A DNA stretch of 64,000 nucleotides from the NCBI GenBank assembly GCA_030650095.1, contig JAUSEE010000001.1, positions 8,199 to 72,198 on the forward strand, written 5' to 3'. The stretch is from Candidatus Buchananbacteria bacterium. GTDB lineage: Bacteria; Patescibacteriota; Patescibacteriia; 2-01-FULL-39-33. This document shows positions 1,428-61,790 of the stretch, piece by piece. Both the position numbers and the translations under genes were made by a program. The notes under the pieces were generated by a model. It was not told the origin of the DNA. It did no database searches and was given only the letters and a program-made list of their open reading frames with translations. Numbering within the stretch: the first letter of the stretch is position 1; every line of letters begins with the position of its first letter.

Positions 1428-2939
1428 ATGAAGTATTTTATCTACGCTCGCAAGTCCACTGATAGCGAAGAACGGCAGATATTAAGCATTGAATCCCAGA
1501 TTGCTGAGTTATATGAATTTGCCGCCAAAGAAAAACTGGAAATCGCCGCTTCGCTGTGCGAAGCGAAAACCGCCAAAGAACCTGGCCGAACGGTGTTCGG
1601 GGAAATGCTGGATCGGATTTGCGCCGGTGAAGCCGGAGGAATTTTGGCTTGGCACCCGGACCGGCTCGCAAGAAATTCAATTGACGGAGGCAAAATCATT
1701 TATCTTTTGGACACAGGCCAGATCAAGGACTTAAAATTTCCCACCTTTTGGTTTGACAGCACTCCACAAGGGAAATTCATGATGAACATTGCCTTTGGCC
1801 AAAGCAAGTACTATATCGACAATCTTAGTGAGAATATACGGCGAGGTCATCGGGCTAAGCTAAGGAAAGGTATTTGGCCAATCTTTGCCCCGTTGGGCTA
1901 CCTGAATAACCAACAGACCAAAGGCATTGATCTTGACCGAGAAAGGGCGCCTTTGGTCAAGAAATGCTTTGAGTTGTACGCTACGGGCGAATATACCCTT
2001 AAAGCCCTAAGGGATGTAATCAGTCAAGCGGGGCTAAGAAGCTACCGAGGCAATGTTCTGGCGGTGGCCTGTGTCCAAAGAATGCTCAAAAACTCAATTT
2101 ACTACGGCCTTTTCAAGTTTAACGATGAAATGCACGAGGGAACGCATGAGCCGATTATTTCCAAGAAACTTTTTGATGAAGCTCAACAAGTGATGAATAA
2201 CCGAGGCAAGAAGAAAAGAAAACGAAAACACGAGTTTACTTTTTCTGGACTGATGAAATGCGGGAAGTGCGATTGCCTCATTACTGCTGAAAAACAAAAA
2301 GGCCACAATTATTATCGCTGTACCAAGAAAAAGCAAACCTGCGACGAAAAATATCTGCGGGAAGAATCACTTGTTGAACAGATGAAAGAAATTATTCAAA
2401 AAGTTTCCTTGCCAGACGATTGGGCAAAAAACATGCTCGCCGAGATTGAGCTGGAAAGAGAGCAGGCCAGAAAAGATGGCGAGGTTTTTGGGCAAAAGTT
2501 GGAAGTGAGAAAAACAGAAATCGAGCAAACTATGGAACGCCTGCTTGATTTGTTCATTGAAGGCAAAAATATTGAGCCAGAGGAGTATCACGCTAAAAAA
2601 CAAAAACTTCTCATTGAGAAGTGTGAGGTTAGTCAGCAAATCAAGGATTTTGCCCAAAAAGGAAATAATTGGCTCGAACCCATGAAAGAAATGATTCTAG
2701 CCAGCAGCCAAGCCAAAATTCTATTGTCGCGGGGCGACAATTCGCAAATCCGAGCATTTCTAAAAAATATCGGCTCGAACTTCATTTTGGAAGCCAAAAA
2801 ATTTGAATTTCAGGCCAAAACTGGTTGGCGAATTCTGAAACTTCTGCCCGAAAACTGGGCAAATACCGATTGGCGGAGAGTGAGGGATTTGAACCCTCGA
2901 TACCTTTCGGTATACACGCTTTCCAAGCGTGCGCACTAG
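1428..2939 (+). CDS. Large serine recombinase (resolvase/invertase catalytic domain, recombinase domain and C-terminal zinc ribbon). The true stop is uncertain because the track ORF reads through the tRNA-Ser on the opposite strand.
   Basis: N-terminal YARKSTDSEERQILSIESQ catalytic-serine motif; CGKCDCLITAEKQKGHNYYRC zinc-ribbon motif; 503 aa. The last 23 codons are the antisense of the tRNA. Confidence 0.85.
   Translation: MKYFIYARKSTDSEERQILSIESQIAELYEFAAKEKLEIAASLCEAKTAKEPGRTVFGEMLDRICAGEAGGILAWHPDRLARNSIDGGKIIYLLDTGQIKDLKFPTFWFDSTPQGKFMMNIAFGQSKYYIDNLSENIRRGHRAKLRKGIWPIFAPLGYLNNQQTKGIDLDRERAPLVKKCFELYATGEYTLKALRDVISQAGLRSYRGNVLAVACVQRMLKNSIYYGLFKFNDEMHEGTHEPIISKKLFDEAQQVMNNRGKKKRKRKHEFTFSGLMKCGKCDCLITAEKQKGHNYYRCTKKKQTCDEKYLREESLVEQMKEIIQKVSLPDDWAKNMLAEIELEREQARKDGEVFGQKLEVRKTEIEQTMERLLDLFIEGKNIEPEEYHAKKQKLLIEKCEVSQQIKDFAQKGNNWLEPMKEMILASSQAKILLSRGDNSQIRAFLKNIGSNFILEAKKFEFQAKTGWRILKLLPENWANTDWRRVRDLNPRYLSVYTLSKRAH
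2762..2876. repeat. Right copy of the inverted repeat (partners at 1281-1367 and 1133-1161). It covers the recombinase 3' end and 6 nt of the tRNA-Ser 3' terminus.
   Basis: Exact reverse-complement identity, checked by eye. Confidence 0.85.
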
Positions 2940-2959
2940 ACCAACTATGCGAACTCTCC
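2871..2959 (-). tRNA. tRNA-Ser (anticodon GGA), 89 nt, CCA encoded
   Basis: Minus-strand cloverleaf: acceptor GGAGAGT/ACTCTCC, anticodon stem-loop ACGC-TTGGAAA-GCGT, long variable arm, T-arm GAGGG-TTCAAAT-CCCTC, terminal GCCA. Confidence 0.8.
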
Positions 2960-5701: not shown

Positions 5702-5986
5702 TTACAAAATCTTTGGCACTTTGATGTAGCCGTTGCTGTTTTGGAAAGAAGAGGCCACCAGTTCATCACTGATGCCCGATTCTTCAATTTTATCTTCGCG
5801 CATAATATTGGTTAAGCCTGTCACTTGTGAGGTTTCTTCCACGCCGGAAGTATCCACGGCTTGTAATTTTTCTACGTAATCCAAAATATCAGACAATTGC
5901 TGGCTGTACAATTTAGCCTCATCTTCGGACAGATTTAATCTGGCCAATTTGGCGATATGCTCAATTTCTGATTTAGATAGTTTCAT
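5702..5986 (-). CDS. gatC: Amidotransferase subunit C
   Basis: 94 aa, ...IAKLARLNLSEDEAKLYSQQLSDILDYVEKL, immediately upstream of gatA. Confidence 0.85.
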   Translation of the reverse strand: MKLSKSEIEHIAKLARLNLSEDEAKLYSQQLSDILDYVEKLQAVDTSGVEETSQVTGLTNIMREDKIEESGISDELVASSFQNSNGYIKVPKIL

Positions 5987-6108
5987 TGGAATTTTATGAT
6001 TAATAACCCGTGTTGAAAGCTCTTATTTTTAGCTATAAATCCAACGCCGTAAACTAAAAAGATTCTATCATTTATAGCGCCTTTTGGCAATGTGTTCATT
6101 TTAAACAT

Positions 6109-42631: not shown

Positions 42632-42716
42632 GGTTAGAAAAATTATTAATTACTTTATCTCAAAAATTGGGATAAAAATTTATATGCGGAGAGGGTGGCC
42701 TGGCCTGCCGGTAGGC

Positions 42717-42868
42717 AGGGATTTACGGAATAATTTGCCACCAAAAAGTGGCAAATTATTCTGTCCTGGGTGGCCGCCAATCCTGCGCCAGCTCGGATTG
42801 GCTTAAAGTTTCGTTTCGACGCTCGGCTTCCGCCTTGCTTCTCACTCAACTTGCCACCCGTTCAAATC
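42717..42868. repeat. 152-bp structured element R, copy A. It is preceded by a displaced 14-nt tRNA-Ser(TGA) 3'-end fragment plus 25 nt of that tRNA's downstream flank (42658-42696).
   Basis: Near-identical to 43045-43196 (3 substitutions). Contains a 14-bp perfect stem (gaataatttgccac/gtggcaaattattc) and an 8-bp stem (gccaatcc/ggattggc). Confidence 0.8.
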
Positions 42869-42922
42869 CCGCTATCTCATATCTAAATTTTTATCCTAAA
42901 AATTGGGATAAAAATTTATATG

Positions 42923-43009
42923 CGGAGAGGGTGGGATTCGAACCCACGGTCCCCGTGAAGGGACTTCAGTTTTCAAGACTGACACATTCGACCACTCTGT
43001 CACCTCTCC
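42923..43009 (-). tRNA. tRNA-Ser (anticodon TGA)
   Basis: GGAGAGG acceptor, anticodon loop CTTGAAA, long variable arm, T-arm GTGGG-TTCGAAT-CCCAC. Confidence 0.8.
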
Positions 43010-43044
43010 ATCTAAAATTGTATTATCACTTACTGCAGAGAAGG

Positions 43045-43196
43045 AGGGATTTACGGCATAATTTGCCACCAAAAAGTGGCAAATTATTCTGTCCTGGGTG
43101 GCCGCCAATCCTGCGCCAGCTCGGATTGGCTTAAAGTTTCGTTTCGGCGCTCGGCTTCCGCCTTGCTTCTCACTCAACTTGCCACCTGTTCAAATC
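43045..43196. repeat. Element R, copy B. It is preceded by an 18-nt fragment (tgcagagaaggagggatt) matching the 3' end of tRNA-Ser(GCT) with 1 mismatch.
   Basis: See copy A. Confidence 0.8.
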
Positions 43197-43255
43197 TTAG
43201 CTTCTTTCATAAGCTGATTTGAGAATGAGGATAAACCACATTATCAAATCATCTG

Positions 43256-43345
43256 CGGAGAAGGAGGGATTCGAACCCTCGATACGCTTAAAAAACGTAT
43301 AACGGATTAGCAATCCGCCGCTTTCAGCCACTCAGCCACCTCTCC
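43256..43345 (-). tRNA. tRNA-Ser (anticodon GCT)
   Basis: Acceptor GGAGAGG, anticodon arm CGGAT-TGCTAAT-CCG, long variable arm, T-arm GAGGG-TTCGAAT-CCCTC. Confidence 0.8.
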
Positions 43346-44759: not shown

Positions 44760-46658
44760 TTATTCTCTGGCTAACGACTGCTCGAATTCTTTCTTGGCTT
44801 GTTCAATTTCCAGTAGCTGCCTGGGATCAGAAGTTATCAATTGATCTTCCGAATAAGAAGCAACTACTCTTATGGCCGCATGCTTAGCGCCGGCAAAAAA
44901 GATGCCTTCACCCACACCGCATTCCAACAGCAAGTATTTTTCCCCTTCGGTAAGCAGGAATGTCTTTTGAATCAAACTGGCGGCAGCAGGCGACTGCTTC
45001 ATAAGAAGCTGTAAAGACGAGTTATTAACAATGGCTTGGCCATAAGGAGAAGTCAAAAAATCATTAACATCTTGGGTAATCGTGGTAACGCCCAAATAAT
45101 ACTTACGGCATCTTTTGACCAAGGCAAATATAAACTTGGCGCTATCCTCTCTTTGCATCAGCCACCAGGCTTCATCCACTACCAGTATCCTTCTTTTGGT
45201 TTCGCTTCTAACCACATTCCAAATATAATTAACGATGGTATAAATGGCCAGGGGTTTTAATTCATCCTCTAAATCACGCACACTGAAAGCCACCAATTGA
45301 TTATTCATGGCCACATTGGTGGGATTATTCAAGAGTCCGGCAAAAGTGCCTTCGGTGTATTTTTTTAATCTTAAAACTATATTTTCACCATTTTCCATGC
45401 CTTCCAAAATCTCTGCAAAATCCTGCATAATAGGCGGTTCCACCAGAGATAAATCAGTATTGGCTGTTATATCTTTTTTGGCGTAAGTCTCCAGCAGGGC
45501 TCTGTCGATTATGGAATCTTCTTCCGGTGTGATATCGCCGATCATCAGTTTAATCAAACCCTTGACTGTTATCACCGCTCCCCTGATGATATCATCGGTC
45601 CTGGCATCTTCGCCAATGGATCTGGGCAAATCAAAAGGATTTATCTTGCTCTCGGAATTAAGGGAAACATCAATATAGGTTCCACCGACAGCATCGCACA
45701 GATGCTTGTATTCCCTTTCGGGATCAATAATGATAACTTCGGTGCCAAACATCAAGCTTCTTAAAACTTCTAATTTTATGGCGTATGATTTGCCGGCGCC
45801 GGAAGTGGCAAAAACAACCGAGTTGGCATTTTGCAGAGAAAATCTGTCAAACAGAATCAAACTGTTATTATGCCTATTGATGCCAAAGAGCACTCCGTTG
45901 TCAGAGGTTAAATCGGAAGAAACAAAGGGAAAAGAACTGGCCGCCGGAGAGGTGTTCATATTGGTTAGAATCTGCAGATCATCGGAAGCAATGGGCAAAG
46001 TGGAATTAAAGCCTTGTTCGGCTTGATAAAAAACCCTTCTGGAATAAACCAAAGTGGAACCCAAAATATTTTCTACGCTTTCACAAGAATTGTCTAAGGC
46101 CTCCAGAGTCTTATCATAAACAGTTATATACAAAGCTGTCTGAAAAAAATGCTCAATGCCTTGGGTTAAATCATCCCTTAATTTTTCCATATCTCTTAGA
46201 GCCGTTTCCCGAAGCGGATCGCGAGGAGCGCCTTTTTCGGCATCAGAAATAAGTCCGGCTTGCAAGGCGCCGACTTTTTTCTTGAGCTGTTTTAAAATGA
46301 TAGGAGCTTTAACCGGATAAAAATAAATAGCCATATCAGCCGTAACATTAAGGTTGATAATGGGGGCAAACCAGCCCACATTTATATATCTGGGATATTC
46401 AATGACAAAAATCGTTTTGATAAAATAATCCCCCAATTTAATATACGAGCCGGTTACTTCCAGTGAAGCCGGAGAAATAAAATCACGCACCGAAACAATG
46501 CCCCGCCTATAAACCCTTTCTTCCTCCAGGGCTTTTTTGCTGGTTTGTATCTCTTGAGAGAGCATTTCTTTTCTTTGGCTGGCAGTCAAAGCCGGAGCCC
46601 GGTCCAGTTCCTGTGCTCTTGTTTTATCAACCTTATTCAGTTGACTTGGATCAAACAT
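44760..46658 (-). CDS. virB4: VirB4/TrbE/CagE-family type IV secretion ATPase
   Basis: Walker A ATSGAGKS, Walker B VVDEAWW, 632 aa (a short N-domain). Confidence 0.8.
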   Translation of the reverse strand: MFDPSQLNKVDKTRAQELDRAPALTASQRKEMLSQEIQTSKKALEEERVYRRGIVSVRDFISPASLEVTGSYIKLGDYFIKTIFVIEYPRYINVGWFAPIINLNVTADMAIYFYPVKAPIILKQLKKKVGALQAGLISDAEKGAPRDPLRETALRDMEKLRDDLTQGIEHFFQTALYITVYDKTLEALDNSCESVENILGSTLVYSRRVFYQAEQGFNSTLPIASDDLQILTNMNTSPAASSFPFVSSDLTSDNGVLFGINRHNNSLILFDRFSLQNANSVVFATSGAGKSYAIKLEVLRSLMFGTEVIIIDPEREYKHLCDAVGGTYIDVSLNSESKINPFDLPRSIGEDARTDDIIRGAVITVKGLIKLMIGDITPEEDSIIDRALLETYAKKDITANTDLSLVEPPIMQDFAEILEGMENGENIVLRLKKYTEGTFAGLLNNPTNVAMNNQLVAFSVRDLEDELKPLAIYTIVNYIWNVVRSETKRRILVVDEAWWLMQREDSAKFIFALVKRCRKYYLGVTTITQDVNDFLTSPYGQAIVNNSSLQLLMKQSPAAASLIQKTFLLTEGEKYLLLECGVGEGIFFAGAKHAAIRVVASYSEDQLITSDPRQLLEIEQAKKEFEQSLARE

Positions 46659-46683
46659 AAATAAAAAAATAAAAAATTATTAA

Positions 46684-47358
46684 CTACTGCTCCACATCTA
46701 ATTTATTGATATCAGCTATCTTCTGGCTTTCAGAAATAGTCGGATTATAGGTATTATAAAATAGTTCTATCAGTGATTGGGTGTTTAAAATAGAAACTCT
46801 AAGTCCCATGCTCATTAAGCCGGAAATTATTTTATCAACTTCAATGAAAAGCTCCTGATGGCGCTTGGAAAATTCTTTTTGGCTTAATTTAATCAGTTTG
46901 GTCGGTGAAACAACATCGGTGCTTCTTTCCCAAAAATTTCTTTTTTTGCCAAAAGACGCGTTATAATAAACCACTACGTAGAATTTTTTGGTCATGATAT
47001 CTCCTAATTCCACTAATTCGGAAATATATTTTCGGTATTCCGATGTTTGGAGTTTGAGTAAATCATTGGCCTGCTCCTCTTCGGCTCTTTTGATATCCGC
47101 CAAGTAATTATCCAAATTCAACTTCCGGGATTGTATCACTATTTGCAAAGTGGTATCCAAGGAATTTAAAAAAGATATATAGCCGGCCACAATGGCATTT
47201 TGTTCTTCTTCTGATTTCAAAGCAAAATTCATGCTGGATACCAGAAGAACGGATCGAAGAGTGCCATCTTTCATAATAACAGCATCATCCCTTATTTCAG
47301 AAATAGTCATGTAGCTTTGGGTGCTGGGTGTGGATTTTGTCGCTTTTCTGTTAGCCAT
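46684..47358 (-). CDS. Hypothetical protein between the PrgI-like gene and virB4. Possibly a detached N-terminal VirB4 domain.
   Basis: Position and size only. The VirB4 ORF lacks the ~200-aa N-domain seen in longer homologs. Confidence 0.3.
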   Translation of the reverse strand: MANRKATKSTPSTQSYMTISEIRDDAVIMKDGTLRSVLLVSSMNFALKSEEEQNAIVAGYISFLNSLDTTLQIVIQSRKLNLDNYLADIKRAEEEQANDLLKLQTSEYRKYISELVELGDIMTKKFYVVVYYNASFGKKRNFWERSTDVVSPTKLIKLSQKEFSKRHQELFIEVDKIISGLMSMGLRVSILNTQSLIELFYNTYNPTISESQKIADINKLDVEQ

Positions 47359-47379
47359 ACTTGCTTAACTTTAGCTATT

Positions 47380-47841
47380 TTATTTCTTTAAATTATTTAC
47401 ATGATTGATTACGCCTTCTCCTTGATAAACGCCGCCGGTATCAACTATCAGGGCTAATTCAGACAGATTAGAAGCATTGATAATCTTTTTTCTAACAGCC
47501 ACTTCCGGCCCCTTTTCTTCTTTGGGCTTTTTTAAACTCATTTTTATATCCGCCTCACTGATGGTTTTACGCCAAATTTTAAGCTTGGGATTTTTGATGG
47601 TAGTTATAAAATTAAGCAGGAAATTATGAAAATGCTGGCCGTTTATTTTAATGAAAGCAAAGGTAACGGTGATGACCAAAACCAGCAAGCCGGAAACCAC
47701 AAACAAAGAAAAATCAAAAATTTTATAAAAGATAAAAATAATGATTCCTCCTATTACCATCTCTATAAACTGGCGGACAGTTATGGGGCCGATTATCCTG
47801 TCTTCAACATCTAAAAATTGTGGTACGGTTATTTGTTCCAT
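47380..47841 (-). CDS. PrgI/VirB3-like small membrane protein
   Basis: EDRIIGPITVRQFIEMVIGGIII motif, two transmembrane helices, position upstream of virB4. Confidence 0.55.
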   Translation of the reverse strand: MEQITVPQFLDVEDRIIGPITVRQFIEMVIGGIIIFIFYKIFDFSLFVVSGLLVLVITVTFAFIKINGQHFHNFLLNFITTIKNPKLKIWRKTISEADIKMSLKKPKEEKGPEVAVRKKIINASNLSELALIVDTGGVYQGEGVINHVNNLKK

Positions 47842-47905
47842 AAACCATGAATAGTAAATTATAAATTCAAAATATCAAGCTCCAAATAAATATCAAATCT
47901 CAAAC

Positions 47906-48274
47906 TCAAATTGGCTTATTTTTGCTCTTTTCTATTATAGCAGCAAATATTTTTAAAAGCTGACAGGTTTCATCCAAAAGCAGCTCCATTTTCACCTTAA
48001 GCCGCGGATTGGCTTCAATAATCAGTTTTAACCAATAGACTGTCTCTTTAGCTTCTTTACGACATATCCTCATTCTAAATTGAAAATCTTTTTTTGTTTC
48101 AGTTTCATTAGCTTCTCTATAATTAGCCCCTAGCGATAACCCCGATCTAACCACCTGCCTTACCAATACATTATTAACAATGTTTAGTGGAATATTCTTC
48201 GCCATTTTTATTATTCTCTTGCCATATTCCAGTGTTCTATCTTCAAGGTCATAACTATTTGTAATTTCTACCAT
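47906..48274 (-). CDS. Four-helix-bundle protein (23S rRNA intervening-sequence protein family)
   Basis: YGKRIIKMAKNIP...QVVRSGLSLGANYREANE core typical of this family; 122 aa. Confidence 0.65.
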   Translation of the reverse strand: MVEITNSYDLEDRTLEYGKRIIKMAKNIPLNIVNNVLVRQVVRSGLSLGANYREANETETKKDFQFRMRICRKEAKETVYWLKLIIEANPRLKVKMELLLDETCQLLKIFAAIIEKSKNKPI

Positions 48275-52736: not shown

Positions 52737-55700
52737 TTATTGATTTTTATTTATGGTAAGTGAAACTGTTACCGGGTCATTAGATTTATTCCAATTATCA
52801 TAAACAGTTATTTCCACCTCCACAGTACAACTATCATTATTGCAATCAGTGTCCGGAATACTGCTAACTTTATTAAAATCATAAAGATGGTACAAAAGGA
52901 AAGGATTTTCCGGATTGGTTCTGTTTCTAAGCGACACACCGCTAACTTTTGATTTTTCTCCATCTTTCCAATCAATGACATAGGCGGTAAGAGGCAGCTG
53001 ATCAGGATCAATCAAGGTGGTAAAAGCCAGTTTGGCCAAACCAACACCATTATAAATAGTGGGATCGATGCTATTGTTTATTATTTTGCTGGTTACTTTT
53101 GGCTTAACATAACAAGGCTGAACACTAGATTCTTCCCTTTTATCGCCAGTAGCGCCACCATTGCATTCCCCACTGGGTATGGATAAATAATCTTCCCGGC
53201 TAGGATCCTCCTTATATACTCCGCCTCTATCAGCCACTGGGCCATCTAGACAGTCGCCATTGGCCGCGCGATTATCACCTTCACATTTATTCCAGCGCCA
53301 CTTCCAAGCTCCATAGCTTTGAGCGAATAACTGCTGTAGACCATCTTGGCTATGAATTTCGCCCATTCTGGCTTGATAAGGAGGGGCAAAACCGCCCAGT
53401 CGCGGTGGCTCATAAAGCAAGGGAGTATTAAAAATGCCGGCGCGGCTGCTCCAATTAACCGGATTTGGACTGCCGGAAGGAGAAACTATGGCGCCAAAAG
53501 GCTGATAATCAGATGATTGATAAGTGGAGGCATCAAGCGCAGAAACATCCCCGCCGGATCCACCGCCAAACCAACCACCCAATTGGCCTAGAAGCCCTTG
53601 GAGAAACTCAATAAATACTCCGCTACCGGGCACTTCGGCTGCATCTGATCCATTATATGTAAAATCAATATTATCCAAGAATTTATTAAAATCAAACGGA
53701 TCATAATAATAATACTTGCCCGTAGTTTCACCCTCGGCTTTATTTCTGGCTTCGGCATCATTATTGATAAAGCCCGATCCTGGAGTTACCCGATTAGCAT
53801 AAGCCTTATTGGTGCCCGAAGAAGTTACCACTCTCACTAAGCTGTCACAATAATTAATATCAAAATCACCTTTGATAGTCATACGTATATAGACCGCGTC
53901 GGCTTCGGCTGTGGATCTAACAAACCAAGACGCGCCCAAAATATCACCATCCAAATCCGGAATCGGATCAGTGGCGCCACCAGTAATGCCACCAGCTTGC
54001 GTATCATCTATGATTTTCAGTCCCATGAGCGGACCAAAATAAACTCCTAAATCTCCCTGAGACTGCAACAACTGTGTTAATTGTTCAATTATACCGCCAA
54101 TATTACCTGTAGCTATTTCATAAGGGATAGGTATTGGCAGACAAATCAAGAAACCGCCTTCTCCACCTAAACCGACACAAAATGGTATGGCCGCCCAACC
54201 TTTCCACTCGCGCTTATCAGTATCATAGGTTAGGGTTTTATTAACCGGAATCATAACAACAAAGCCCACATCATGCTGAAAACCAAAACCGGTAACTTTA
54301 AGCTTGATTCTATCAACATAAGGGAACCTAAAGAGCGAGCGGTAATCATCTTTGATATTCATCGGACTAAAGTTCATTTGCTGGCCGGTGTTGATATCCG
54401 AAAAACCAGATACCACTTCTTGGGCATCAGAGCTTAAAGACAGGGCTACGCCTGATTTAGAAAAATCCACATTAAATCTCTTTTTTTCCACGCAATAATC
54501 CAAAGGCAATCTGTCGTTATAACCGCCAACCTCGTTTAATATCTCGCCCTGAAGCTGATCTACCGGCCACCATTGCAAGCATTGTTTGGAATTGTTGGGA
54601 TCCACTAGTAAGCAATAGCCGTAACTGCCGTAGAATAAATTATTGCCTTCCAAATACCGGCAAGACAGCGCATCTTCGGCCGGATAAATACGGCAACTTC
54701 GGGTTAAATAATTATCAGTTAAATCATTTGGCGTGGACAGATCATTGCTAACCTTTAGAATCGGCTTAAGAGAAATATCGTCAAATAAAGCCGTCCCGCC
54801 CAAAGCGCATTCAGTGAGCTGGTTGTTATCATTACAACCGCCTATATTAACATGATTTTTCAATTTAATTCTTATTTTATCGGTGTTAAGGGAGGGATTA
54901 AACTCAAACATTCTTTTGGTCCAAGACAAGCCACTCACTAAAGACAATTCGGTGGGATATTTCCAGTCGCCCCAACTGCCTCCTTCGGTGTGTTCCCGGT
55001 ACTGAATCTGCGATTGGATTACTTCATTTCCATCGGGATAATTCAAGCCAGAAGAATTAATCCAGCCGGAAAGGATATAGGGATCACCGCCGAAAACATC
55101 AATTTCCTCCGACAGGGCTTCGTAGAAAGAGTTTAAAATCAAATGCCTGGATCCGTCCGGACTGCTCTTGGTATCTTTGGCTACGCTAAACTTATAATCA
55201 TGCCAACCCACAGCTTCCGACTTATACGATTCACTGTCATCACCGGTAGATTCCGAGGGGCTCCAGCCCAAAGGTTCGGTGGAATTGGTTACCACCGATT
55301 CAAAATTGCCGTTGGTAATAGAACCGGCATTGCCGAATTGAGTCATTAGATAATAAGGGAAATAACCTGCCACATTAATGCCGCCGGGGAAATTCTTGCC
55401 CACGGAAGCATAGCCGGTTTTATAAAAATCTTTCTCGCTGTAATTTTCATCGGTTATTTCGCCTGATTTCAAAATAAAATTATTACAGACGCCTTTTTCA
55501 TCAACCGAAGCGCACAGCCCCAAATCCAAGCAACGGTCGTTATTGCCATAAATCGGATCAACACTATTGGGATCATCTTTTTCATAGGTAGTACAATAAA
55601 GCCAATTGTAACAAGTTCTATCCGGCTGGACTTTTAAAATAACATTAGCATCGCCTTTGGCCGGCGGGGTAGCCGATATAGGCGTCGTCGGATCTTGGTT

Positions 55701-58700
55701 TGGCTTGTCCATTTGCTCCTTGTAACTGGCGCCGGCATCAAAAGTGAGGTAGTTAACATTTCTGTCTGAAACACTTTTAGCTGAATAATTAATCGAGCCT
55801 CTGTCGTTAAACAAAACACAACCGGAATTATAATCTATTAAGCCGTTGCAGCCGGTGTAATCAACTTTGGCGGAGAGGGCATAATAAACGCCTGATTGCA
55901 CCAATCTTAGATTATTAACTGCTTGGGGCGCAGGGATAACTAATTTTACGAGGCAAGTCGTATGGGAATTATAAATTATATAAAACCGGCCGCTGGCAGA
56001 TTTGGGCGAACCTATATTGCCACCGGTGATATTCATACTGTCATCAGGTGAAACCATTAGCCCGGTGCAGGGAGTCGAAGATGCTATTTCGATTTTAGCT
56101 TTGGTAGTAGCACTCTCATCCACCGAGAAAGAATAAAGCGTGTGAGACAATAGATTTATATTTTGTGACAAGCCGGTGCCATTTCCATCCCAATGATCTG
56201 GAATATCATTGCCATCAGCATCTTGACTTAAATCAACATTTAATATTTCATTTTTATAAACTTCGGTTATCGGATCAATGTATTCGGTGCAACTGCTTTG
56301 TTCGGCCGGGCAAAGCCCCACCCAATTCTGATAGCTGGCGGTGGTGCCACCGGGCGTCGGCCAAGCATCTTCACTAGGCATTCTGTAGCTGTTAAACCAG
56401 CCCACGGGCTGGACTTTATTTTCCGGAGAACCGGTGCCAATGGTTTGAAGATAAGTGACATCGCAGGGTTCGGTAGTGCCTTTCTTATACCACTGCGCCT
56501 GGGCTTGGCCTAAATCCGTCCTGTATTCACAAACCCTATCTCTGGGGTCTTTGAAATAAGAAACATTCCTGGAGCCGACAAATTCCTGGCACCAGAGGGC
56601 GCTGGCCTGGCATAAATCAGTGGCGTATCTATCGGGCTGATTTTTAAGATAAGAATCAGCATAGCCAACAACTTCATCTTGATTGTTAATTTTGGGCAAG
56701 CCGTAAGCTAAGCAACCCTTATCTTCCGATTTGCAATTATATTTAGAATCATTAACTATGTAAACAAAATTGTCACTGGGCACAGTTACCTGCGATGGGT
56801 CGCCTGAATTATAAGTTGCGCCGTAATAAGAATCGGAATTGTAGGTATCTATTAATTGTTCGCAACCCACGGCATCGCGACGGCACAAATTTTCAAAAGA
56901 TTTTAAAAACCAATTCTTATTGGAACGATCACGATACTCTTGACAGCCGATCATTTTTCCCGGATTGCTCCTCTCTGGATTTAGAGCATCGCCGGCACCG
57001 TAAGGCTGACTAATAATATTGTCGCAAACAAAAGGAGTAAACCAAGAATTTTCAATGGCATAGACGCTTTGAGGCAATTCTTTAAGCAAAATATTATCAA
57101 TGTAAATCACCTGTCCGCTGGGGATATTTATTTCTATATTCTGCTCGAAATAACCAGTGCCACTGCCCCAGCTAACTTGCACCGGGCCAAGATCATAACG
57201 ATTCCATTCATTGGTTATGGGAATAGGCAAATCTCCGGCTGTTACCACATCCGGATGGCCAACTATAAATGAGCCCTCTGGCGGCGCCTGTGAAAACCTG
57301 ATGGAATCAAGATCAAAGCCAGCATTGCCTTTAGCCCAAAAACTAATGGCATAAGATTTGTCTTTTTTGATTAAGACTGTTTTGGAGAACTGGCGAGAAC
57401 TATTGAGGCTGTTGGTAAGAGAATTTCCGCCCGGATGGGTAGCTTCGCTGGCTATCGTACCTCCCTGCCAATCCATGGCGCCGGATTCAAAATCAGACAA
57501 AAAGATATTCCTAAAGCTGCTGCCCTTATTGCCGGTGTATTCCCGACAGCCTTTTAAATTAGCCGAGCAAGTCTGGCCTTGGCCGGGAATGGCCATATAA
57601 ATACACTCGCCAAACTGATTATAATAGCCTTGATTGTTTCGACAATCCTGGGCGGCTTCAGCCTCATCATTTTGAGTTTGGGTTCGGCGGTAAGGATGGC
57701 AATCGCTGGAAACATAAATAACCCGTGACAACAACCGGTAATGAATATTGCCACTGACATCATAAAATTCACGGCAGTCCGGATTGGAATTCAAATCAGA
57801 AGACAAACAAGCGGCATCGTTAGTGTTTGGATCATCACTGGGCACAGGATCACCGCAAACATTGTCGCCGTTTAAATTATTAGGGTAGCTTAAATTGGTA
57901 CAGGGAGGAGTGCCCACGCCAGAAGTATCATTGGAGCCTTTCAAAGTGAAAACTTTAAGCTGATAACCGGTGGTATCACTGCCTTCCCAAGTATAATAAG
58001 TGACTTCATCGCCGTAGGCATCAGGCTTCTGGCAAGTCCTAAACTGAGTATAGTATTCCAAACCTTCTCCGCCTCTGGCTACTTCGTCTAAATTGGTGAA
58101 TTCGTCACAGCCGGCAGCGGCGGCAGAACAATATTGAATAGGATCTTTGGCAATGAATTGCTTGTATTTGGCCGAAACAAAACTGGTCGGCTCCTGCTTA
58201 TAAACCTGATAGCCGGCGCACTCCGACGGACAGACATCAGCCGAAGTGATTGTTCCGGGCACAGCCGGATCGCCATTTACCGGAGTATAGAGTTCGCAGT
58301 TCATCTCGCTTTTTATGCAAACACTGGAATAATTGGCACAAGCCGGATTGCGGCCGAATATAACCTGCTGCAGTTCGGTTAAATTGGTAGGCCAGTTACC
58401 AGCAGAGGTTAAATAGCAATCGTAATAATCGGGCGCTTTTTTAAGATAAGTTAATTGCGAGGCCGGCCTCTGGCTGGGGTTGTAAGAGGTGTAAGATGTA
58501 GGAATATTAATGCCGGCTGAAACCGCTTCTAGTTTGACAGCGTCAAAGTAAGCTTCTTTTAGACCGCTGCTACCTTGGTTGATAAACAAGCGCGGACTAA
58601 CTACTTCGTCCGGGCTGTTCCAAACAAAGCTAGTGCTAACCGTTGTCCATTTATACAAATCCGCTTCGGCAAATGTATTCGGTTCGGTGGTTATGCTGGC

Positions 58701-61700
58701 GTCATCGTTAAGAGATACAAAATAACTGCCTATTTTTTGAATATAAACCCTGGCTGATAAAATATATTTATTGCCATTTATTAAAGTAAGCGGACTAAGA
58801 GAAGCGGTGGCCGAAAAATAAGCGCAATGTTGAGAGTTTGAATCAAAATCAGATCTTAAACCGATAGATTTATCGCCATCTGCGCCGGAATTAACGACAA
58901 ATATTTCACAGGAGCCGTGATTGCCACTAGCGCCGGGCTCCCCTATCCAATGATTTAAATCACTGTAATAATCTTCAAAACTGCCATCAACTATCAAGTT
59001 GCTGCCCAAATCTGATTTCACTCTGATAAACTGGCTGCAGCCGACAGCTGATGAACTGCAAGCCTGGGCATCGCGATCAAAGTATATTTCTGAATCGGTA
59101 TTATCTTGAGAGCCAATATTAAGCCAAACATCACCGGTAGTGCAAGAACCAAGCGCTTCTTTTAGGCTAAAGTCATCAAAAAATACCGTACCCGTTGTGC
59201 CGGCATTAGTGATAACCCTTATTTCTATGCTATCACCGGCCTGGATATTCTGGGTGCTGAAATTAACGGAATATTCTTGCCAATTATCGCTCAAAAGGCC
59301 AATGGTTTGACTGCCAACTTCCAAACTGGAAGAAAATACTTTGACATCAAAACTGCCCAAGCTGATATTGCCGCGCAAATAAAATGATAATTTATAATTC
59401 TTGTTCGCCTCTACGCCGGAATTAACTGACAAGGTGGTTGAAAGGGGCGTGGTATTATTAAAACTCACACTCTCCAGTGAATACGAGCCGGTACGCTTGC
59501 TAATGTCGGATCTAAATTGCCTATTGGTATCATTTTGATAGCTTTCCTGCCAAAAACGGGCATCCCAACTGGCATTACCGATTAATTCAAAACTGTTATT
59601 GAAAGGAGTTAAAATATCAATGGAGTTCAAACACTTATCCAACGAGCATCTCACACCGTCAAAAGGCACGGTGCAAGACTCCCCGCTAAAATCACAACCG
59701 CCGTCAGTGGCACAAACTTTATCCATCACTATGCCGGCGTTAGCGGAATAAGCCGTTTGCTTCCATTGTTCTACTTCTAAACCGGAAACTGTACAACCAA
59801 CCAATGTATTGCAAGTTTTAAGTGTTTTTTCACTCTCGCTATTTAGCCAAGTGTTATCTTTGATATTATACAGTGTGCTGTACCACCGGCAACCGGCCGA
59901 CTGGGAACTGCAATCGCTATAATCAAGAGTATTGGCCAGATAAGACCCGGTGGTGCCATTTTTCGATTGGAAAGTTTGGCAAGTGTTGAAGCGCGGCTGG
60001 CAATTGGTGGAGTTTAAATTCCAAATTTTTCTTTCTTCGGTGCAATAGCCATAAGCCGTGCAATTGCCATCGGAATCTTCGGTTAAGCATTGCTGTTCAT
60101 CAGCGCAATACTGATTGCGAACCACCGATCCGTCTTGAGAACTGGCTCTGGTATTTTGATCGCCATAACCCTCACGGCGGCAGAAAAGTTCCGGCGCTTT
60201 TAAAACCCACTGGGGATCAATCAGATTTTGGAAGGTGGAAGAAGCATGATTAAATTCTTTGAGCAAATCGCCCAAGGTGTAATTCTGCTGTTCCTGTTTG
60301 GACTGGCTGATATACCTAGCGGCGATTTCCCAACCAACCGGCACGATTCTGTATTTTCTTAAAATAACAATATTTCTTAAAGAAAAAGATTCCTGCGGAT
60401 TGACATTATCAATCGGCGGCACAAATTGCCTGTTTAAAATCGAGGCCGGCAGATCTTTGACTAATTTCTTTTCCCTGATCGCTTGGGACAAAATGGGATC
60501 TATCACGCAATCAGTCGGGCCGGGATTTATTTTATTAGCTTCGGTGCAATTGGTTAATTTGTTTAAAATATCATATGGACCGCCTATGGCCAGATTGCTT
60601 TCGATTAAGTTTAAAAATCTTTCTTTGGCGCCAATGGAACCTTCCACATAAGGCGATGATTCCGGATTAAGAAGTGAAGCAAAGCGGGAAAGATTGGGCA
60701 GATTAAAGCCTTTATTTCCGTCCGAGCTGCCACTCTTAAAATAACCGGTTTTTAGGTTCTCTAAAAGTTGGCCGACTAAGGTGTCCAAAAATGTCTGTAT
60801 AAAATCCCAAACAGTTCCAGTGAAAGTGGAATCTTCTTTACCAGCTCTTTCTTGAGCTACTTCGTGTTGGTTTTTTACCATAGTGCCGGGAGTCAAAACC
60901 CAGCCGGTTAGGGTTTTTAGATCTTTAAAACCTTGATTGATGGAGGCTTCCAAGGCGGAAACACCGGTTTTTTCTTTAACCTTATCCATCAAAGACGAGC
61001 TGGTTTTTAAATAGATGCCAATATCGTTTTCGCTGGCATTTAAATAATTGCTGTATTCAACATTAAAATTAGCATCAGTAATGGCTGATCGCCAGTTTTT
61101 AACCATGCCGGTAAAATTACAGGTTGGTTTCTTGATCCGATCGCCTCTTAAGCTGGTTTTGATCATCAGTTCCACATTAAAATTGGGCCGGCATAAATTA
61201 ACGCCGAATTCCTTGTCTATTTCATCAATAAAAGTGCCGGCGGCATTATCGGCCGTGTTTTTCAAATAAGCGCCGATGCCTTCGGTGATAAACAACGGCT
61301 TTTGGCCTTTGCCGCCGGAAGCGATCCAAGAAGCGGTATCATAAGCCAGTTGTTTGGAAAAAGCGCTTAACATGGATTTCCAAGCGCCAGCCAAAACATC
61401 TCTCCAAGTCTGTTTTTCTACCTCTCTTAAGCTATCAGCGGCGATGTGTATTTGGTTGTTTTCGGTGACAACAACATTCTGGCATTGGCTGGCATTAATA
61501 GCCGACTGCACAGCTGTTTTCATAGCCTGGCTACAATCAAAAGTCACGCCATTTGCTGTTCCTGTTATAGGTACAGGAATACATTCTATGGCTAGAGCTT
61601 CGGCTAGCGCTTTTCCATTACAGGCTATAGCAGATTCAATCGCCGCGCCCGAGCCGGCAGTAGCTTCAGCCGCAGTTAGAGCTAACGTCCCCATTGTACT

Positions 61701-61790
61701 AGGAGATAGAGCCCTAACAAATCCAATTGATGCCAAAAACAAAAATAGCGGAACAAGCAAAAATAAAAATTTTATCCTAAGACTCTTCAT
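52737..61790 (-). CDS. Giant secreted Cys-rich protein (3017 aa) with multiple CBM4/9-like carbohydrate-binding modules
   Basis: Signal peptide. At least five modules start with (S/N)GNFE/SFEDY...W and end in beta-sandwich-like segments. More than 100 Cys. Confidence 0.6.
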   Translation of the reverse strand: MKSLRIKFLFLLVPLFLFLASIGFVRALSPSTMGTLALTAAEATAGSGAAIESAIACNGKALAEALAIECIPVPITGTANGVTFDCSQAMKTAVQSAINASQCQNVVVTENNQIHIAADSLREVEKQTWRDVLAGAWKSMLSAFSKQLAYDTASWIASGGKGQKPLFITEGIGAYLKNTADNAAGTFIDEIDKEFGVNLCRPNFNVELMIKTSLRGDRIKKPTCNFTGMVKNWRSAITDANFNVEYSNYLNASENDIGIYLKTSSSLMDKVKEKTGVSALEASINQGFKDLKTLTGWVLTPGTMVKNQHEVAQERAGKEDSTFTGTVWDFIQTFLDTLVGQLLENLKTGYFKSGSSDGNKGFNLPNLSRFASLLNPESSPYVEGSIGAKERFLNLIESNLAIGGPYDILNKLTNCTEANKINPGPTDCVIDPILSQAIREKKLVKDLPASILNRQFVPPIDNVNPQESFSLRNIVILRKYRIVPVGWEIAARYISQSKQEQQNYTLGDLLKEFNHASSTFQNLIDPQWVLKAPELFCRREGYGDQNTRASSQDGSVVRNQYCADEQQCLTEDSDGNCTAYGYCTEERKIWNLNSTNCQPRFNTCQTFQSKNGTTGSYLANTLDYSDCSSQSAGCRWYSTLYNIKDNTWLNSESEKTLKTCNTLVGCTVSGLEVEQWKQTAYSANAGIVMDKVCATDGGCDFSGESCTVPFDGVRCSLDKCLNSIDILTPFNNSFELIGNASWDARFWQESYQNDTNRQFRSDISKRTGSYSLESVSFNNTTPLSTTLSVNSGVEANKNYKLSFYLRGNISLGSFDVKVFSSSLEVGSQTIGLLSDNWQEYSVNFSTQNIQAGDSIEIRVITNAGTTGTVFFDDFSLKEALGSCTTGDVWLNIGSQDNTDSEIYFDRDAQACSSSAVGCSQFIRVKSDLGSNLIVDGSFEDYYSDLNHWIGEPGASGNHGSCEIFVVNSGADGDKSIGLRSDFDSNSQHCAYFSATASLSPLTLINGNKYILSARVYIQKIGSYFVSLNDDASITTEPNTFAEADLYKWTTVSTSFVWNSPDEVVSPRLFINQGSSGLKEAYFDAVKLEAVSAGINIPTSYTSYNPSQRPASQLTYLKKAPDYYDCYLTSAGNWPTNLTELQQVIFGRNPACANYSSVCIKSEMNCELYTPVNGDPAVPGTITSADVCPSECAGYQVYKQEPTSFVSAKYKQFIAKDPIQYCSAAAAGCDEFTNLDEVARGGEGLEYYTQFRTCQKPDAYGDEVTYYTWEGSDTTGYQLKVFTLKGSNDTSGVGTPPCTNLSYPNNLNGDNVCGDPVPSDDPNTNDAACLSSDLNSNPDCREFYDVSGNIHYRLLSRVIYVSSDCHPYRRTQTQNDEAEAAQDCRNNQGYYNQFGECIYMAIPGQGQTCSANLKGCREYTGNKGSSFRNIFLSDFESGAMDWQGGTIASEATHPGGNSLTNSLNSSRQFSKTVLIKKDKSYAISFWAKGNAGFDLDSIRFSQAPPEGSFIVGHPDVVTAGDLPIPITNEWNRYDLGPVQVSWGSGTGYFEQNIEINIPSGQVIYIDNILLKELPQSVYAIENSWFTPFVCDNIISQPYGAGDALNPERSNPGKMIGCQEYRDRSNKNWFLKSFENLCRRDAVGCEQLIDTYNSDSYYGATYNSGDPSQVTVPSDNFVYIVNDSKYNCKSEDKGCLAYGLPKINNQDEVVGYADSYLKNQPDRYATDLCQASALWCQEFVGSRNVSYFKDPRDRVCEYRTDLGQAQAQWYKKGTTEPCDVTYLQTIGTGSPENKVQPVGWFNSYRMPSEDAWPTPGGTTASYQNWVGLCPAEQSSCTEYIDPITEVYKNEILNVDLSQDADGNDIPDHWDGNGTGLSQNINLLSHTLYSFSVDESATTKAKIEIASSTPCTGLMVSPDDSMNITGGNIGSPKSASGRFYIIYNSHTTCLVKLVIPAPQAVNNLRLVQSGVYYALSAKVDYTGCNGLIDYNSGCVLFNDRGSINYSAKSVSDRNVNYLTFDAGASYKEQMDKPNQDPTTPISATPPAKGDANVILKVQPDRTCYNWLYCTTYEKDDPNSVDPIYGNNDRCLDLGLCASVDEKGVCNNFILKSGEITDENYSEKDFYKTGYASVGKNFPGGINVAGYFPYYLMTQFGNAGSITNGNFESVVTNSTEPLGWSPSESTGDDSESYKSEAVGWHDYKFSVAKDTKSSPDGSRHLILNSFYEALSEEIDVFGGDPYILSGWINSSGLNYPDGNEVIQSQIQYREHTEGGSWGDWKYPTELSLVSGLSWTKRMFEFNPSLNTDKIRIKLKNHVNIGGCNDNNQLTECALGGTALFDDISLKPILKVSNDLSTPNDLTDNYLTRSCRIYPAEDALSCRYLEGNNLFYGSYGYCLLVDPNNSKQCLQWWPVDQLQGEILNEVGGYNDRLPLDYCVEKKRFNVDFSKSGVALSLSSDAQEVVSGFSDINTGQQMNFSPMNIKDDYRSLFRFPYVDRIKLKVTGFGFQHDVGFVVMIPVNKTLTYDTDKREWKGWAAIPFCVGLGGEGGFLICLPIPIPYEIATGNIGGIIEQLTQLLQSQGDLGVYFGPLMGLKIIDDTQAGGITGGATDPIPDLDGDILGASWFVRSTAEADAVYIRMTIKGDFDINYCDSLVRVVTSSGTNKAYANRVTPGSGFINNDAEARNKAEGETTGKYYYYDPFDFNKFLDNIDFTYNGSDAAEVPGSGVFIEFLQGLLGQLGGWFGGGSGGDVSALDASTYQSSDYQPFGAIVSPSGSPNPVNWSSRAGIFNTPLLYEPPRLGGFAPPYQARMGEIHSQDGLQQLFAQSYGAWKWRWNKCEGDNRAANGDCLDGPVADRGGVYKEDPSREDYLSIPSGECNGGATGDKREESSVQPCYVKPKVTSKIINNSIDPTIYNGVGLAKLAFTTLIDPDQLPLTAYVIDWKDGEKSKVSGVSLRNRTNPENPFLLYHLYDFNKVSSIPDTDCNNDSCTVEVEITVYDNWNKSNDPVTVSLTINKNQ

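Follow-up and report, generated by a model that had tools for sequence, protein, structure and literature searches.

Transfer RNA genes are classic landing sites of genomic islands, and the known elements that use them are defined by their integrases. The Islander definition of islands in tRNA and transfer-messenger RNA (tmRNA) genes includes a sublocation class at the T-loop (PMC4383910). The ssrA islands of Dehalococcoides insert midway in the T-loop of tmRNA, have 20-bp direct repeats with a conserved 15-bp motif by the repeat, occur as tandem islands, and encode a CcrB-family serine recombinase, DsiB, on the reverse strand next to attL and the regenerated gene (PMC3146451). Free-standing cassettes encoding GIY-YIG endonucleases are also found at tRNA genes, as with T4 SegB (PMC2330249). 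Here we analyze a 64,000-nucleotide (nt) stretch of a Candidatus Buchananbacteria contig (JAUSEE010000001.1, positions 8,199 to 72,198; the whole stretch is called the window), in which a folded, non-coding unit of 155 nt, designated R, occurs twice beside tRNA-Ser genes. We favor, at about an even chance, a reading in which R forms the conserved and structured core of a small, non-autonomous element whose insertions target the T-loop or 3' end of the genes for tRNA-Ser and tRNA-Tyr and which is transcribed together with these genes. No published description of an R-like element was found in literature searches.

All features of the tRNA and R array lie on the minus strand and are presented in tRNA sense (Table 1); contigs of relatives or from metagenomes that were compared with the window carry codes beginning with L. 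An initial annotation, made from the sequence alone, had described a 152-bp element present twice, each copy joined to a displaced tRNA 3' end beside a tRNA-Ser gene, and our analysis confirms this arrangement. R copies A (42717-42868) and B (43045-43196) are 98.0% identical over 152 nt, with 3 mismatches (BLASTN, E ~3e-72), and a repeat search returned a 164-nt direct repeat at 95% identity (42705-42868 versus 43033-43196). The mismatches are not adenine-specific, and interpretation of the copies as the template and variable repeats of a diversity-generating retroelement was therefore rejected. Neither BLASTN nor the covariance model described below detected a third copy in the window. The element itself stood as annotated, except that its first 7 nt (AGGGATT) belong to the T-loop-derived fragment; in tRNA sense these are the final 7 nt of R as it was then delimited, and the displaced tRNA-Ser(GCT) tail (43033-43051) overlaps them. 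That tail, AATCCCTCCTTCTCTGCAG, was correctly recognized as the tRNA-Ser(GCT) 3' end with 1 mismatch, and it spans T-loop A58 to 3 nt beyond the discriminator base. Copy A is flanked by a 45-nt direct repeat (42654-42698 versus 42890-42934, 96%). The tRNA portion of the fragment previously given as 14 plus 25 nt is right, but the flank is longer, such that the repeat comprises 13-14 nt of tRNA and 31-32 nt of flank. The spacers between the tRNA genes and R, annotated as 55 and 60 bp, are 53 nt for TGA (31 nt of duplicated flank, then a 19-nt leader) and 58 nt for GCT.

R is not confined to the window. A gapped pattern derived from the blocks common to the window and L022 was run on metagenomes and identified three further lineages (L030, L034 and L038), giving a sample of five lineages with long R, the window included, and two short variants. 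In L022 a divergent R follows tRNA-Ser(TGA), with a 29-nt duplicate; in L030 R follows tRNA-Tyr(GTA); in L034 it lies 60 nt past the terminal inverted repeat of a cassette encoding helix-turn-helix (HTH), methyltransferase (MTase) and R.Pab1 proteins; and in L038 it comes after the Avs4 C-terminal half and a 219-aa open reading frame (ORF) and precedes a tRNA-Ser(GCT)-like tail. A shorter R-like element follows tRNA-Ser(TGA) in L018. The genomic contexts of the family therefore differ, and R is found at tRNA-Ser(TGA), at tRNA-Tyr and elsewhere in other lineages.

A regenerated tRNA gene and a displaced 3' fragment in direct orientation occur with both window copies and in L022, L030 and L018, and the inserts between tRNA and displaced tail measure 191-228 bp and contain no ORF. 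In copy B, L022, L030, L038 and L018, T-loop A58/A59 is where the displaced tail begins, and in copy A it begins four bases further on, at T-stem position 62/63; the T-loop junction and direct orientation noted in the initial annotation are thus supported. The leaders between intact tRNA and R have nothing in common between lineages. The far end of the duplicate is variable: it lies at the discriminator base in L018 (16 nt), 3 nt past it in copy B (19 nt), 14 nt into flank in L022 (29 nt), 31 nt into flank in copy A (45 nt) and 50 nt into flank in L030 (at least 67 nt). The duplicates of copy B and L018 would fit an identity block confined to a tRNA-derived attachment (att) core, whereas those of copy A, L022 and L030, three lineages, enter unique flank by 14-50 nt. 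A start in the T-loop combined with a variable run into unique flank points to target duplication rather than element-borne tRNA mimicry, and to us the tail duplications look like target duplications anchored in the T-loop. The termini of R share only a 6-7 nt inverted repeat (GGGATT/AATCCC), half of which belongs to the target.

The displaced GCT fragment is followed by GCAGTAAGTG, which is similar to what flanks the native tRNA in relatives (L022, GCAGTTAATG; L014, GCATTAAATC), whereas the flank of the intact tRNA-Ser(GCT), GCAGATGATT, is unlike it. Likewise, the displaced tail of copy B with its flank (..TCTCTGCAGTAAG) resembles the native tRNA ends of L022 (..TCTCTGCAGTTAA) and L014 (..TCTCTGCATTAA). 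Between R copy A and the TGA-type fragment lies a 25-nt segment, AATCCCTGCCTACCGGCAGGCCAGG, that may be a degenerate GCT-type tRNA tail (14/19 matches). A remnant in this position is what would be expected if a copy consisting of a short leader, R and an old tail had entered tRNA-Ser(TGA), although the similarity is weak. In L030, a 209-nt unit is repeated at 100% identity up to the contig end; the repeat is a true tandem, or else the assembly looped through the duplicate, which measures at least 67 nt. About 80 nt before the intact tRNA-Tyr gene of the same contig, on its upstream side, partial duplicates of its 5' part (TATCTAAGCGGTCAA and TAAATCTGCTGG, 2144-2200) suggest that a displaced 5' fragment is present there too.

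Alignment of the family revealed a conserved fold. A covariance model, R1, was built from six sequences and scores every long member at 136-174 bits. In the consensus, helix P1 closes a three-way junction, an irregular P2 hairpin ends in an invariant CGGAAG loop (GNRA), and a hairpin P3 and a long hairpin P4 complete the structure; the junction CCCAGGRCAGAAUAA is invariant. The stems named in the initial annotation are real and correspond to a hairpin of 13-15 bp and one of 8 bp. Across the six sequences, 94.7% of the cells are paired and 14 of 35 pairs carry compensatory double-sided changes, in helices such as GGGUGGC/GCCACCC, GGGUUGG/CCAACCC and GGGACAG/CUGUCCC. None of 500 shuffles reached these pairing and covariation values, and control alignments with slid 3' partners paired at only 28-48%. 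Folding energies are far below those of shuffled controls (z -4.3 to -7.2). The tRNA-sense strand is favored by the excess of G.U over A.C cells (12 versus 3) and folds more stably in four of the six members by single-sequence energies, and the G+C content of R is 49-58% in contigs of 32-48%. On these comparisons R is evidently under structural selection and probably functions as RNA. The earlier view that the copies are decayed attL/attR scars does not hold, as compensatory changes in 14 of 35 pairs show that R is not decayed.

The fold does not belong to a described family. No Rfam 15 entry matches the R core (E<=10 in the window, E<=5 in four other loci), and a known RNA family was rejected on that basis; weak sub-threshold matches that reach R (sX4, STnc361 and several microRNA models) rest on the adjacent tRNA or on the ends of R, all far under gathering scores. 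ARAGORN called no tmRNA. A coding function was rejected, since no reading frame is open in all members, and a viral, phage or plasmid origin was rejected as well, there being no match to R in viral contigs (four pattern scans) or in phage and plasmid collections (blastn).

Transcription of R together with the tRNAs is suggested by the arrangement of signals. Near the array on the minus strand, promoter-like sites occur only upstream of tRNA-Ser(GCT). On that strand, a search for terminator-like sites gave none between the tRNAs and the R copies; its sole match lies inside tRNA-Ser(GCT), in the anticodon arm (43301-43319). The array from promoter to tail is most likely one transcript in which R is made as RNA alongside the tRNAs. 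The initial annotation had offered a small structured RNA co-transcribed with the tRNAs as its alternative, and this agrees with the covariation, with the strand bias and with where the promoters lie. R is not excised from the tRNA, since the tRNA is intact.

The 5' start of every R is GGGAUUYGAA, with the variant GAGAUUCGAA in L018. This motif is the exact complement of UUCGAAUCCC, which spans the insertion point (T-loop and 3' strand of the T-stem), and the L018 variant matches the unusual T-stem (CUC) of the adjoining intact tRNA. In the window, the motif has U where other R sequences have C; it still pairs with the neighboring tRNAs via G.U and matches tRNA-Ser(GGA) perfectly. After insertion, the motif can pair in cis with AAUCCC of the displaced tail. 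These matches suggest that the motif recognizes the target. The T-arm is palindromic, however, and so a guide cannot be told from a copied half of the T-arm.

Together, these data are consistent with the following model. The element would enter at the T-loop or 3' end of a tRNA gene with a long variable arm (Ser-GCT, Ser-TGA, Ser-GGA-like or Tyr) and would leave the tRNA intact. Both sides of the insert would then carry the stretch that begins in the T-loop and ends variably, at or past the end of the tRNA, with R abutting the downstream copy, and the mobilizing enzyme would be supplied in trans. Mobility of R is suggested by its presence at different tRNAs and in different genomes, by the target duplications and by the constant G+C content of R. 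A serine recombinase acting in trans would be the conventional candidate for the mover and has precedent, yet it would leave the fold, the unrelated leaders and the flank duplications unexplained. The variable duplication of flank would better fit a staggered-cut or copy-based process; a copy-based RNA route would explain all three features, and no enzyme for it was found.

Several points weigh against this model. The sample is small, at five long-R lineages and two short variants, no R adjoins a candidate mobilizing enzyme, and polymorphism between filled and empty sites within one species was not seen. The two window copies are 328 bp apart, and gene conversion could therefore account for their 98% identity even if neither moved recently; in principle, a local duplication and a later deletion could have given rise to copy A. 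The L030 tandem may be an assembly loop arising from the long direct repeat, the R of L034 has no tRNA tail after it, and it is promoter-like sites that point to transcription of R. The 5' motif could be the copied half of a palindromic T-arm instead of a guide.

The most serious alternative, which is the model of the initial annotation and which we nonetheless consider unlikely, takes R as conserved DNA from the far end (attP arm) of islands that target tRNA-Ser genes. A site-specific recombinase, probably of the large serine type, would move these islands, and the window copies would be cargo-less remnants or mini-elements that it mobilized in trans. A T-loop junction with a regenerated tRNA and a displaced fragment defines a tRNA gene island (PMC4383910), a CcrB-family serine recombinase inserts islands in the middle of a T-loop in Dehalococcoides (PMC3146451), and the window contains a CcrB-like recombinase antisense to tRNA-Ser(GGA). 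This gene, annotated earlier as a serine recombinase at that tRNA, indeed encodes a 503-aa large serine recombinase of the XisF/CcrB-like type (1428-2939, plus strand) that overlaps tRNA-Ser(GGA) (2871-2959, minus strand) by 69 nt. It is the only recombinase among the 38 window ORFs scanned with Pfam, which include RecG, RadA, ComFC, ligase, pilus and type IV secretion system (T4SS)-like genes; about a dozen ORFs, among them a 3017-aa ORF (52737-61790), lie outside that scan. No tyrosine integrase, reverse transcriptase, TnpB or IS110 was found among the 38. The recombinase is about 40 kb from the R copies and adjoins tRNA-Ser(GGA), not R. It is bracketed by 95-nt inverted repeats (1276-1370 versus 2787-2881, 97%) that include the last 11 nt of tRNA-Ser(GGA), and more inverted pieces of the 3' region of the gene occur at 1107-1181. 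In appearance, the 1107-2959 region is closer to an invertible or palindromic cassette than to an island that simply integrated.

A link to islands comes from L048, a longer homologue of the L038 island, which carries a serine recombinase (37% identical) and ParB-methylase, LexA-like and Avs4-like genes. At its end, about 10 kb from the recombinase, are a short R-like variant (weak, at 10.3 bits and E 0.04 with the covariance model), a tRNA-Ser(GGA)-like tail, TTCGAATGGCCCTCCCTCTCTGCA, and then a terminator. The variant occupies the position that long R has in L038, beside a tRNA-Ser-like 3' fragment, such that one island couples a serine recombinase with an R-like end and a tRNA-Ser(GGA)-like tail and its homologue ends in long R and a tRNA-Ser tail. 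The 20 kb of L048 yielded no tRNA, and its attL side is therefore unseen. Of the integrative-element family that had been proposed for the tRNA-Ser genes, the link to islands thus survives through L038 and L048, and an integrase beside R does not, since none adjoins any R. Upstream of R in both Avs4 islands (L038, 238-330; L048, 10700-10790) is a conserved T-arm-like hairpin with an acceptor-like end, GGGTACTTAACCCGACTACACCG, located where an intact tRNA would be expected and called as a tRNA by neither ARAGORN nor Rfam.

Other features are difficult to reconcile with an attP arm. The att sites of serine recombinases are about 50 bp, which leaves multi-helix covariation with G.U pairs unexplained; the leaders, supposedly borne by the element, are unrelated between lineages; the duplicates hold 14-50 nt of unique flank, which classical attP mimicry does not predict; and in copy A the possible old GCT fragment lies distal to R, which is the wrong side for the product of attP x attB recombination in tRNA-Ser(TGA). 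Inspection by eye showed no consistent dyad symmetry at the reconstructed junction between R end and leader. Our favored reading, a non-autonomous element with a structured core, is like Islander tRNA gene islands in that targets are regenerated, a displaced direct 3' fragment lies at the far end and the junction is in the T-loop. It differs in that the insert is about 200 bp, has neither integrase nor cargo, contains a folded, covarying core, has duplicates that extend into unique flank and has leaders that are not conserved. Similarly, the T-loop insertion, 3'-end direct repeats, tandem accretion and conserved motif abutting the repeat recall the Dehalococcoides islands, as do the reverse-strand serine recombinase at the 3' end of the window tRNA-Ser(GGA) and the ParB-domain methylase of L048. 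In place of a 15-bp motif and a fixed 20-bp repeat, however, R is a 155-nt structured unit with repeats of 16 to at least 67 nt, and R mini-elements lack an integration module, with no recombinase beside either window copy.

It is also possible, though somewhat less so, that R is a host small RNA gene or a processing element of the tRNA operon that is inherited vertically or carried passively, with tail copies that arose by local duplication. The strong structural conservation and sense-strand signature, the likely co-transcription with essential tRNAs, and the filling of the same syntenic slot in the window, L022 and (in short form) L018 would all suit such a gene. Close relatives L014 and L027 lack R at the locus, however, and R occurs beside defense and restriction-modification (R-M) cargo and at tRNA-Tyr in unrelated contigs. 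Only two copies are present in 64 kb, and one exact 20-mer scan of GTDB species representatives gave only chance matches, in high-GC genomes and one Saccharibacteria metagenome-assembled genome (MAG). A mimic of a tRNA minihelix (acceptor and T-arm) was rejected, because the energies of the leader/tail duplexes were no better than those of shuffled leaders in any instance.

A bolder and improbable proposal is that R is a bacterial counterpart of short interspersed nuclear elements (SINEs) or an RNA-guided mobile RNA, in which read-through from the tRNA promoter would produce R, GGGAUUYGAA would pair across the insertion point and a trans-acting enzyme would copy R into the T-loops of Ser and Tyr genes. 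Copying back by such an enzyme would make the 3' junction precise, vary the target duplications and truncate the leaders. To a narrower version, a SINE-like retroposon whose read-through transcript would be copied by a trans-acting reverse transcriptase and inserted at a T-loop nick, we give slightly lower credence still. The precise 3' junction with duplications of 16 to at least 67 nt, the variable and truncated-looking 5' leaders (the 19 nt of copy A resemble the end of leader B), the older tail fragment that may separate R copy A from the new tail, the RNA-like, sense-oriented, co-transcribed core and the absence of an ORF would all be accommodated. Against it, the ORFs scanned, both in the 64-kb window and at the R loci, gave no reverse transcriptase domain, the source and insert of copy A would be merely 328 bp apart, and the 6 nt after the old tail of copy A mismatch the donor locus. 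To our knowledge, bacteria have no element of this kind. Finally, it is very improbable that a unit of about 330 bp, made up of tRNA and R, was simply duplicated in tandem at this locus, without wider meaning: the units are collinear and 328-336 bp apart, but the tRNAs are old paralogues (77-83% identical over two alignable repeat segments) while the R copies are 98% identical, leaders A and B differ, and the idea, raised in the initial annotation as an explanation of the tails, is largely refuted by family members at other tRNAs in other genomes with the same T-loop junction.

R also shares features with mobile elements and RNAs of other kinds. Cis-mobilizable elements (CIMEs), which derive from integrative elements and are non-autonomous, and miniature inverted-repeat transposable elements (MITEs) are short, lack ORFs and depend on enzymes supplied in trans, and several copies can be present at related sites. 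R resembles both in being short and ORF-less with several copies at related targets, and differs from MITEs in lacking long terminal inverted repeats and a target duplication of fixed length and in its conserved internal structure. Guides are carried by the RNAs of several mobile elements, including group I and group II introns, the IS110 bridge RNA, the IS605 omega RNA and the retron msr-msd. Like these, R is a structured RNA of about 150 nt at the end of an element, its 10-nt motif complements the sequence at the insertion point, and its layout of an end-pairing helix, a multi-stem domain and a long hairpin resembles retron non-coding RNA. Unlike these, it has no adjacent gene for a reverse transcriptase, TnpB or DEDD recombinase and no Rfam match, and it is too small for a group I or group II intron.

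Inserts with the architecture of R but with a GIY-YIG ORF in its place are present in relatives (L046 and L018/L019), and share the order of intact tRNA-Ser, short leader, insert and displaced tail starting in the T-loop; R has no ORF, and no GIY-YIG gene that might serve as a nearby helper was found in the window or at the R loci. In L046 (9444-9876), a 99-aa GIY-YIG ORF lies between intact tRNA-Ser(GGA) and a displaced tail, GATACCCTCCCTCTCCGCCA, within an insert that has terminal inverted repeats of about 21 bp. CCA is encoded in the displaced tail but not in the intact gene in L046, and likewise in L018. In L018/L019 (5856-6258), the 5' half of tRNA-Ser(TGA) is present as a perfect 36-nt copy that stops within the anticodon. 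Two small hairpins come next, and then an 88-aa GIY-YIG ORF, which runs into the start of the intact tRNA. This arrangement mirrors that of R, with insertion on the 5' side and at the anticodon loop, and the same pattern is seen at tRNA-Ser(GGA) in L046 (9150-9460). Inverted repeats about 150 bp long (GGCGGTGTTTTTTGGACGAAGTTCGAAC...; L042, 3937-4140 and 6632-6810; L034, 2570-2720) enclose the HTH/N6-MTase/R.Pab1 R-M cassette, and related sequence is present at 1130-1290 of the window, next to the cassette with the serine recombinase. Across phyla of the candidate phyla radiation (CPR) and in a DPANN archaeon, homologues of the R-M methylase number more than 2000, and the best 120 share at least 83% protein identity with it; the R-M cassette adjoins a tRNA-Ser gene in both contexts inspected (L042 and L046). 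The GIY-YIG inserts and R-M cassettes at tRNA-Ser genes indicate that these genes are general landing pads and that R is one of several passengers.

The conserved unit is therefore a 155-nt folded non-coding module without an Rfam match, located at Ser and Tyr T-loops in several uncultured CPR lineages and at the edge of defense cargo, in organisms whose mobilome is poorly known. If R RNA does aid its own targeting or processing, it would represent a new class of structured RNA and a new use of tRNA genes as insertion sites. Variable tRNA-tail duplicates and mini-elements break metagenome assemblies at this locus, and the displaced tRNA fragments of R inserts could mislead island-finding software that relies on them.

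Table 1. Features of the tRNA-Ser/R array of the window, listed in tRNA sense.
Feature	Positions	Strand	Basis or detail
Two strong sigma-70-like promoters, upstream of tRNA-Ser(GCT)	43476-43448 and 43397-43369	-	TTGATA-17-TATAAT (11/12), TTTACA-17-TAAAAT (10/12)
tRNA-Ser(GCT), intact	43256..43345	-	ARAGORN; Rfam tRNA 60.6 bits (the two together, 43255/6-43345)
Leader B, spacer from tRNA-Ser(GCT) to R copy B	43199..43255	-	Sequence; lineage-specific, 57-58 nt
R copy B	43045..43198	-	Covariance model R1, 169.7 bits
R copy B, 5' motif AAGATTTGAAC	43198-43188	-	
R copy B, helix P1	43187-43181 paired with 43102-43096	-	
R copy B, P2 domain including CGGAAG hairpin	43180-43131	-	
R copy B, P3	43130-43104	-	
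R copy B, junction AGGACAGA	43095-43088	-	
R copy B, P4 hairpin	43087-43058	-	
Displaced tRNA-Ser(GCT) 3' end AATCCCTCCTTCTCTGCAG	43033..43051	-	Sequence alignment; 19 nt, 1 mismatch
Linker from displaced GCT tail to tRNA-Ser(TGA)	43010-43032	-	23 nt
tRNA-Ser(TGA), intact	42923..43009	-	ARAGORN; Rfam tRNA 62.8 bits (the two together, 42922/3-43009)
Proximal 45-nt direct repeat	42890..42934	-	Repeat search, 96%; last 13-14 nt of tRNA-Ser(TGA) plus 31-32 nt flank
Leader A	42871..42889	-	Alignment; 19 nt, weak similarity to last 17 nt of leader B
R copy A	42717..42870	-	Covariance model R1, 173.5 bits
R copy A, 5' motif GGGATTTGAAC	42870-42860	-	
R copy A, helix P1	42859-42853 paired with 42774-42768	-	
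R copy A, P2 domain	42852-42803	-	
R copy A, P3	42802-42776	-	
R copy A, junction	42767-42760	-	
R copy A, P4 hairpin	42759-42730	-	
AATCCCTGCCTACCGGCAGGCCAGG, between R copy A and TGA-type fragment	42699..42723	-	Sequence alignment; 25 nt, forms small hairpin
Distal 45-nt direct repeat	42654..42698	-	Repeat search; displaced tRNA-Ser(TGA) 3' end from T-stem, CCACCCTCTCCGCA, plus 31 nt flank

The surroundings of the array are conserved. The ComF-family protein encoded next to it is 100% identical to a protein of a Candidatus Buchananbacteria MAG, and in tRNA sense T4SS-like genes and ComFC lie upstream of the tRNA-Ser pair, with two small ORFs, tRNA-Arg and RecG downstream. Relatives whose ComFC is 60-70% identical keep this neighborhood, yet the tRNA-Ser pair itself is rearranged in each lineage. 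In L022 the order is TGA then GCT, with the divergent R between them; in L014 the pair is inverted, 58 nt apart; and in L027 the order is GCT then TGA, 33 nt apart, neither of the last two having R between the genes. In L018 an R-M system follows tRNA-Ser(GCT). Contigs of close relatives tend to stop in or shortly before the tRNA-Ser region (L013, L017, L026 and L028). Where the window has its tRNA/R units, L014 has about 330 nt (5724-6050) of GC-rich nested palindromes with repeats of the GTCATTGCGAGC...GCAATGAC type, which look like a different family of miniature repeats. Beside ComFC, PrgI-like, TraC-like and TraG/VirB4-like P-loop genes and a 23S_rRNA_IVP (Avd-like) gene (44760-48274) form a cluster that is conserved in all relatives examined.

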